Source: Escherichia coli
GTDB taxonomy: Bacteria; Pseudomonadota; Gammaproteobacteria; Enterobacterales; Enterobacteriaceae
Length of the DNA: 64,000 nucleotides
Assembly: GCF_003334385.1 (NCBI RefSeq)
Contig: NZ_QOWN01000002.1
Strand: one strand, 5' to 3'
In this document: positions 15,870 through 15,985 of the stretch, one piece after another
Position numbering within the stretch: position 1 is the stretch's first letter
Layout: the number at the start of each line of letters is the position of its first letter
Made by a program: the position numbers and the translations under genes
The notes under the pieces: generated by a model
What the model saw: only the letters and a program-made list of their open reading frames with translations
Database searches by the model: none
Told to the model about the DNA's origin: nothing

Positions 15870-15985
15870 TCCCTCTCCCTTCCAGGGAGAGGGTCGGGGT
15901 GAGGGTAATTTTTCGCACCGATGCTGGCCTGTTCCCCTCACCCTAACCCTCTCCCCAAACGGGGCGAGGGGGCTGACCGAGTCCT
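15870..15985. repeat. GC-rich composite inverted repeat in the alx-sstT intergenic region
   Basis: ccctctcccttccagggagagggtcggggtgagggtaa is followed ~25 bp later by its approximate reverse complement cccctcaccctaaccctctcccc...ggggcgaggggg; ends in a T-run. Confidence 0.5.

Follow-up and report, generated by a model that had tools for sequence, protein, structure and literature searches.

BoxC was reportedly described by Bachellier, Hofnung and colleagues in the 1990s, and PIT elements, by the same kind of account, by Hoyne and Maher in 2000/2002. The family has been known for about thirty years, and to our knowledge neither a function nor a mechanism of spreading has been found for it. BoxC is quoted as a 56-bp element with 32 copies in E. 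coli (PMC2267715). Table 1 of Holder et al. 2015 lists 23 TM_ECO motifs of MG1655, and these authors equate TM_ECO with the motif earlier named BoxC and PIT, the latter name (potential intrastrand triplex element) coming from Maher's group in 2000 (PMC4666352). The single strand of a unit folds in vitro into a stable intrastrand triplex of the purine motif, as found with oligonucleotides of the type A, B, A mm and B mm consensus; in the presence of its complement, TM_ECO stays duplex, and in DMS footprints obtained in vivo the triplex guanines are unprotected (PMC4666352). According to the same paper, PIT elements halt DNA polymerase in vitro with no effect in vivo and showed neither promoter nor terminator activity, most TM_ECO copies occupy the same loci in different strains, and variability from strain to strain is higher around these loci than in intergenic regions taken as controls (PMC4666352). 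A 'palindrome effect', in which deletions at palindromic sites leave a hairpin, is discussed there in general terms. The HPGQ motifs of Kaplan et al. 2016, for which switching between G-quadruplex and hairpin was observed in vitro, are physically the same sequences, picked out there by a G-quadruplex predictor; the name BoxC is absent from that paper, in which the C-rich block counts as flanking sequence and a regulatory role is proposed rather than demonstrated (PMC5100583).

Several other classes of bacterial repeat resemble BoxC in part. REP/BIME (PU) elements are likewise short, GC-rich, extragenic, imperfectly palindromic, dispersed and variable between strains, inverted pairs are common among them, and like BoxC they are found mostly at the 3′ ends of genes; however, their sequence is unrelated to that of BoxC and their design has two arms instead of three blocks. 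For REP, a RAYT transposase acts as the cognate enzyme and IHF, gyrase and Pol I are known to bind, whereas we know of neither a cognate transposase nor a binder for BoxC. ERIC/IRU and the enterobacterial MITEs are, like BoxC, short dispersed repeats that code for nothing, can form hairpins and are polymorphic for presence or absence in intergenic DNA. The sequence of ERIC, an imperfect palindrome of ~127 bp, is nevertheless unrelated, and MITEs end in inverted repeats that match an IS element and are bordered by target-site duplications.

Here we describe a GC-rich inverted repeat between alx and sstT in a 64-kb stretch of E. coli DNA (the window, to which all positions below refer unless MG1655 coordinates are given), its relation to the BoxC family, and the alleles found at this locus across complete E. 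coli genomes.

Results

The inverted repeat is extragenic: alx stops at 15817, before it, and sstT starts at 16216, beyond it. In the list of open reading frames the upstream neighbour alx occupies 14852-15817 (+ strand; MG1655 b3088, 3,238,580-3,239,545) and the downstream neighbour sstT 16216-17460 (+ strand; MG1655 b3089), so that the repeat starts 54 nt past the alx stop codon on the transcribed strand and ends 245 nt before the sstT start codon. When window positions were converted to MG1655 coordinates (offset +3,223,728), both halves of the repeat coincided, letter for letter, with published motifs. The left half (15871-15906, + strand; 36 nt, CCCTCTCCCTTCCAGGGAGAGGGTCGGGGTGAGGGT) is identical to TM_ECO no. 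12, of type B (3,239,599-3,239,634, sense; PMC4666352), and the right half (15934-15970, − strand; 37 nt, reverse complement CCCTCGCCCCGTTTGGGGAGAGGGTTAGGGTGAGGGG) to TM_ECO no. 13, of type A mm (3,239,698-3,239,662, antisense; PMC4666352). The same two units appear beside alx as HPGQ 34 (midpoint 3,239,623, +) and HPGQ 35 (midpoint 3,239,673, −), which are their G-rich halves (PMC5100583). We conclude that the alx-sstT inverted repeat is almost certainly a pair of BoxC elements, a family that also goes by the names PIT, TM_ECO and 'G-quadruplex-hairpin-duplex switch' motif. The feature is already known, this very copy being catalogued at these coordinates in two published lists.

The window is a very close relative of K-12 MG1655 without being identical to it. 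The two differ at 4 of 5001 positions compared (13879, 15972, 16042 and 17683); position 15972, directly outside the type-A unit, is G in the window and A in MG1655.

Membership of the family was also evident from pattern and profile searches. A relaxed regular expression, run over all 18 MG1655 sites extracted by coordinate, returned the 23 units of the published list and no others, each where it had been reported and both alx units included. An nhmmer profile made from the 21 other MG1655 units with their flanks, the alx pair being left out, matched the type-A unit (15989-15926, −; E = 9.8e-15) and the type-B unit (15852-15923, +; E = 8.9e-14) and gave no further match with E < 0.9 in the 64-kb window. 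A chance inverted repeat was ruled out by shuffled sequences, by the clustering of CCCTCTCCC and by family membership. Compared with BoxC/PIT/TM_ECO as published (extragenic, 23 MG1655 units, inverted A/B pairs at five sites), nothing essential is different here.

A BoxC-like word pair at 3970-3993 is no further family member by profile search; it is a simple hairpin, TTTTCCCTCTTCCTGGATGAGGAGAGGGAAAA. This perfect-looking hairpin (3966-3997) shares words with BoxC, has A/T runs on both sides and is probably a bidirectional terminator. In gathering mode, Rfam placed no family at the alx-sstT site (15850-16000) in a search of the whole window. In E-value mode over 14500-16500 it returned microRNA-precursor matches below threshold (21-27 bits, against gathering thresholds of 72-105), which we dismissed as chance matches to a long GC hairpin. 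There is no REP consensus at the site, and the REP-derived naRNA4 matches of the window lie only at 7573-7754, as two tandem copies (−; 72.8 and 66.9 bits); Rfam also placed rnpB (RNase P RNA) at 46488-46864 (−; 318.6 bits). An occurrence of GGGAGAGGG in a nanopore paper (PMC12539251) is part of a T7 primer and irrelevant.

Each unit consists of three blocks of 9-10 nt on one strand, one of pyrimidines and two of purines, in the order CCCTC[T/G]CCC, loop, GGGAGAGGG, loop of 2-3 nt, GGGTGAGGG, with a total length of 34-37 nt and loops of 2-5 nt. In the type-B unit these blocks are CCCTCTCCC (15871-15879), GGGAGAGGG (15885-15893) and GGGTGAGGG (15897-15905) on the + strand; in the type-A mm unit, read on the minus strand, they are CCCTCGCCC (+ strand positions 15962-15970), GGGAGAGGG (15947-15955) and GGGTGAGGG (15935-15943). 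Every unit also contains four G3 tracts with loops of 2-3 nt, a canonical G-quadruplex motif. The two units are inverted, tail to tail (B-> <-A), with 27 nt between them. The sequence-only reading of this DNA had described two GC-rich blocks of ~35 bp that are approximate reverse complements, separated by ~25 bp and followed by a T-run; measurement upheld that description, with units of 36 and 37 nt, 24-nt arms (15885-15908 and 15932-15955) found by repeat search to be 88% complementary, a 27-nt separation, and TTTTTT at 15985-15990 (+). The repeat search also found a perfect 10-nt hairpin within the left unit (15871-15880 / 15884-15893), and 6 of the 12 matches to CCCTCTCCC in the 64 kb (≤1 mismatch) sit within these 100 bases. 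What had appeared to be a composite is two standard BoxC units of different subtypes, B and A, in a pairing that recurs at four further sites of MG1655. Of the five sites in that genome where an A unit is paired with a B unit, four have the B-> <-A layout and three the same spacer; the lldD-trmL pair has the opposite layout, <-A B->.

The conserved element extends slightly beyond 15870-15985, as the profile envelopes cover 15851-15990. Alignment of the 23 MG1655 units showed flanks conserved by subtype, which bring a unit to ~70 nt and the pair to ~130 nt (15858-15985). The type-A consensus is G.GC.C...C.GTC, core, GAACAGGCCAGCA..GTGCG, and the type-B consensus is G.GC.C.G-TTTTCT, core, and then CATCAGCGCGCAC or, in pairs, TAA..TTCGC.CC.GTGC.GGC. 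At alx-sstT the conserved type-B 5′ flank (15858-15870, +) is GCACCGTTTTCT-like, eight aligned MG1655 type-B units having G.GC.C.G-TTTTCT in common, and the conserved type-A 5′ flank (15971-15984, −) reads GGACTCGGTCAGC on the minus strand, with the consensus G.GC.C...C.GTC across 15 aligned type-A units. The spacer (15907-15933; 27 nt, TAATTTTTCGCACCGATGCTGGCCTGTTC) contains a small hairpin in the DNA fold. Comparison of the flanks of the 23 units revealed that it is the reverse complement of the conserved type-A 3′ extension (GAACAGGCCAGCA..GGTGCG), and the same spacer is found at fepB-entC and ygfF-gcvP in MG1655.

The T-run (15985-15990) lies 14 nt past the type-A unit. The T-run is partly a family feature, since in 6 of 15 type-A copies the corresponding position, which is upstream when the unit is read along its own strand, is occupied by an A-run. 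In an extended alignment of five type-A copies (alx-sstT, fimH-gntP, ygfF-gcvP, yihR-yihS and fepB-entC), weak and judged by eye, the T-run is followed by a common tail, ..TTTGTCATCAG.CTG, which at alx-sstT is GATGTTGTCATCAGTCTG (15991-16008, +). Four of these five copies have a GC-rich hairpin of unrelated sequence at the same distance past the tail (15985-16027 in the window). We take this as a lead only; the ancestral element could have been longer, or sites beside terminator hairpins could be preferred.

Folding calculations, which covered Watson-Crick hairpins, bore out the suggestion that the site could form a long hairpin or cruciform. As RNA, 15855-16000 folded with -68.9 kcal/mol, compared with -51.3 ± 4.1 kcal/mol for shuffled sequences (z = -4.27; 0 of 200 shuffles as good), and the two strands of the region folded as single-stranded DNA with z = -3.3 and -3.8. 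The inverted units can also pair with each other, in a predicted hairpin of ~100 nt.

To determine how widely the repeat is dispersed, we compared the 131-nt region by BLAST with 5426 complete E. coli genomes. All 5426 contained matches, the number of matching places in a genome ranging from 1 to 28 with a median of 16. Thus the motif is dispersed and not unique to this locus, and the earlier surmise of a dispersed family that is not REP was correct, BoxC being distinct from REP/BIME. The matching places were chromosomal in 77,272 cases and on plasmids in 29. Only 3 partial matches were found in 50,697 phage records, on the strength of which we rejected an association with phages. Two Campylobacter phages, A18a and A11a (MG065686.1 and MG065691.1), have three places each with ~90% identity to the E. 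coli BoxC pair over 58 nt; such matches are unexpected in a phage with AT-rich DNA, and the two assemblies may contain foreign sequence. A search for Alx homologues that might supply Salmonella or Citrobacter outgroups listed 120 proteins, all near-identical Alx and, where named, from E. coli or Shigella flexneri.

Beyond E. coli, one genome per species was scanned with the pattern GGGAGAGGG-N2-3-GGGTGAGGG, which comprises blocks 2 and 3 only, and at least 120 stretches matched. The matches listed, all outside the enterobacteria, lie in genomes assembled from metagenomes and assigned to Verrucomicrobia, Marinimicrobia, Deltaproteobacteria, Alphaproteobacteria (Hyphomonadaceae, Hyphomicrobiales, Afipia, Pseudolabrys and Novosphingobium), Sideroxyarcus and Contendobacter. 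Block 1 (CCCTC[T/G]CCC, ≤1 substitution) was found within 25 nt upstream in 132 of the 136 matches listed, although the pattern does not contain it. Among the matches listed, the core is multi-copy and nearly letter-for-letter in distant bacteria, with flanks that are conserved within a genome and lineage-specific; the distant phyla have at least 8 inverted pairs within 200 nt and zero direct pairs. Both variants of block 1 recur in many unrelated lineages, with at least 48 exact matches to the G form (CCCTCGCCC) versus at least 64 to the T form (CCCTCTCCC) among the matches listed. The CCCTCGCCC variant has a G.A mismatch to block 2 but a G.T wobble to block 3, and the alternative is conserved across phyla. 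The G/C-rich motif was already reported in >260 genomes by Holder et al. (PMC4666352), so the cross-phylum recurrence extends their work and is not a discovery; it is the most puzzling property of the family.

Alleles of the alx-sstT spacer were surveyed in the same 5426 complete genomes with a 651-nt query spanning it. The full allele, with a span of 651 nt as in the window, accounts for ~48% (~2590 genomes with the pair at ≥95% identity). The short allele, with a span of 576 nt, makes up ~21% (~1155 genomes, obtained by subtracting the ~2590 from the 3745 with ≥80% coverage) and reads ...GTTTTCT-CCCTCTCCCC-AAAA-GGGGCGAGGGG... Removal of 15871-15946 from the window in silico gave the short allele except for 3 SNPs. 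The deletion of 76 bp thus runs between the direct copies of CCCTCTCCC at 15871 and 15947, and a simple hairpin is left. The direction of change is most reasonably from full to short, because it is hard to believe that an insertion would restore a pair matching the family consensus. In the long allele, with a span of 868 nt (~31%; 1660 genomes), ~430 nt of unrelated sequence replaces ~15820-16030 of the window, removing both units and the small hairpin that follows them. A spread sample of 59 rows gave a similar distribution (29 full, 12 short and 18 long). The 190 nt proximal to sstT are nearly invariant across the alleles. The intact pair is absent from ~52% of genomes; since it is absent, deleted or replaced in about half of them, it is dispensable at alx-sstT, and this is as directly observed as its identity, its dispersal and the deletion junction.

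The GC-rich sequence that replaces the pair in the long allele (275-700 of the alx-sstT stretch extracted from E. coli WCHEC040047) has a ~285-nt core that is itself an unannotated dispersed repeat, with a median of 3 places per genome at ~87% identity in complete E. coli genomes. This replacement sequence gave a sub-threshold Rfam match to the TwoAYGGAY RNA (RF01731; 33.1 bits against a gathering threshold of 43, E = 0.004).

Other BoxC loci vary as well. The adk-hemH locus is 104 nt shorter in ~46% of genomes, and at ilvC-ppiC a 55-nt element, compared with the 56 bp quoted for BoxC (PMC2267715), alternates with 14 unrelated nt. At neither of these two loci did comparison of filled and empty alleles reveal a target-site duplication, unlike what is seen with MITEs, and the pattern is one of segment replacement; a MITE reading was rejected accordingly. 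Partial BoxC remnants, such as CCCCTCACCCCAATGGGGAGAGGGAGAAAAC and CCCCAAAGGGGAGAGGGGACTGCACCGAGCC, adjoin single units at yjdP-phnP (upstream of 4,314,285) and in CP4-6 (upstream of 282,101) of MG1655, so some single units are decayed pairs with internal deletions like that of the alx short allele.

Discussion

The explanation that we favor is that the pair is a structure-prone, unstable dispersed repeat, probably selfish or neutral, situated within the alx 3′ region. Its main demonstrable effect is local instability: the internal direct repeats of CCCTCTCCC at 15871 and 15947 promote the 76-bp deletion, probably via replication slippage, and in other lineages the whole intergenic segment has been exchanged. 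We consider it reasonably probable that the pair has no function specific to alx or sstT, and the two propositions taken jointly, BoxC identity and the lack of a locus-specific function, strike us as very probable. Several observations nevertheless run against a lack of function. Half of the genomes keep the intact pair, the base of the predicted hairpin abuts the T-run, and the published terminator assays concerned PIT elements in general and apparently not the alx-sstT composite. Furthermore, the core is near letter-for-letter the same in very distant bacteria while its flanks are lineage-specific. Such conservation across phyla is hard to square with neutral DNA and suggests either a sequence-specific constraint or a dedicated mechanism of spreading.

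A single unit, or else the pair of ~130 nt, might be a mobile element that is not autonomous, in the manner of a MITE or of REP, and is copied or mobilised by an enzyme that recognises the three-block core. We regard this as unlikely. It would fit the subtype-conserved flanks, which extend a unit to ~70 nt and the composite, whose spacer is shared by three loci, to ~130 nt, and the discrete 55-nt element that is present or absent at ilvC-ppiC; yet target-site duplications, sought at adk-hemH and ilvC-ppiC, were found at neither of these two filled/empty loci, where segments have been replaced instead of cleanly inserted. Copy number varies by strain, from 1 to 28 matching places per genome, and in distant phyla the core is multi-copy with lineage-specific flanks, block 1 accompanying 132 of the 136 matches listed and at least 8 inverted pairs within 200 nt, with no direct pairs, occurring among them. 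On the other hand, the motif is nearly missing from plasmids (29 places) and phages (3 of 50,697 records), and we know of no transposase associated with BoxC. Holder et al. saw no link to mobile elements and found most TM_ECO copies at the same loci across strains (PMC4666352).

By analogy with REP and RAYT, the three-block core might be the recognition site of an undiscovered, widespread enzyme or mobilisation system. The occurrence of the core in Verrucomicrobia, Alpha-, Beta-, Gamma- and Deltaproteobacteria and Marinimicrobia, with many copies per genome among the matches listed, would agree with such a role, as would the lineage-specific flanks, the recurrent inverted pairs and the alternative of T and G in block 1 across lineages. 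We hold this idea to be quite unlikely. If it were true, the A/B pair that follows alx in E. coli would serve such a system as one functional 'dimer' and would not be inert DNA.

We are also doubtful that the pair acts at the RNA level, either as the intrinsic terminator of alx or as a stem-loop in its 3′ UTR that shields the alx mRNA from 3′ exonucleases as REP does. Like an intrinsic terminator, the site combines a GC-rich hairpin with a T-run downstream of a stop codon (54 nt past that of alx, on the transcribed strand), and in the predicted RNA hairpin (-68.9 kcal/mol; z = -4.27) the outermost pairs would touch the first U of the six-U run; in contrast to such terminators, however, the stem is ~100 nt long and composite, and its strong GC part ends at 15972, 13 nt short of the T-run, the nearer pairs being few and bulged. 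A scan with a terminator consensus marked 15966-15988 as terminator-like, with 9 pairs of which only 3 are G-C. The tentative idea of a terminator in the sequence-only reading is weakened by this geometry and finds no support in the published tests of the family, PIT elements having been without terminator activity in tests cited by Holder et al. (PMC4666352). In our own reading, six type-A copies carry the A/T-run and in five of them it is downstream relative to the upstream gene, but other copies lie inside operons (pstA-pstB and yihS-yihR) or between divergent genes (fepB-entC), and in tandem gene contexts orientation is mixed (5 C-strand versus 3 G-strand). The ~52% of genomes that lack the intact pair likewise argue against an RNA-level role at this locus.

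A separate hairpin with a T-run stands downstream at 16009-16036 (+; GAAGCCG-CACGT-TGGCTTT followed by ATTTTTAT), where the consensus scan also marked 16009-16027, and is a candidate for the true alx terminator. Its stem is weak (DNA fold -4.1 kcal/mol, z = -1.3), and it is kept in the short allele and replaced in the long one. We infer that alx transcription ends at or beyond the pair, and not because of it. Two Term-seq data sets show no alx 3′ end at the pair, although alx is poorly expressed without induction (PMC7815308, PMC12207403). The only alx 3′ end in them is the known, premature end in the 5′ UTR at MG1655 3,238,482, which is position 14754 of the window (PMC7815308). The alx leader (14620-14850) contains AAAGGGGAGTAAC and had no Rfam match to yybP-ykoY or any other family, either at E ≤ 1 or at the gathering threshold. 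A yybP-ykoY match would have been expected for this leader. The alx product is a Mn2+ exporter of the TerC family.

Finally, a regulatory or architectural site acting at the DNA level, whether by binding a protein, by insulating alx from sstT or by switching sstT through a G-quadruplex or triplex, is very improbable. In its favor, each unit has the four G3 tracts of a canonical G-quadruplex motif, G-quadruplex/hairpin switching (PMC5100583) and triplex formation (PMC4666352) are reported in vitro, and from the pair to the sstT start codon downstream there are 245 nt. Against it, DMS footprinting in vivo gave no non-B structure, double-stranded oligonucleotides remain duplex, neither a functional class of neighbour genes nor a preferred distance from ORFs was found for TM_ECO motifs (PMC4666352), and about half of the genomes have lost the pair by deletion or replacement while the sstT-proximal 190 nt are nearly invariant.

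We therefore return to an unstable dispersed repeat as the preferred explanation of the alx-sstT pair. The proper annotation for the site is 'BoxC pair (TM_ECO 12/13)', and it has little significance for the 64-kb window itself. New here are the allele frequencies in 5426 genomes, the exact junction of the 76-bp deletion, the subtype flanks that extend units to ~70 nt and pairs to ~130 nt, and the recognition that the spacer is the type-A 3′ extension. Slippage between internal direct repeats fits the deletion junction at one locus. These results leave the classification of the element unchanged; for work on BoxC, the frequencies of the three alleles, a junction compatible with slippage, and the units and inverted pairs found across phyla are potentially useful.
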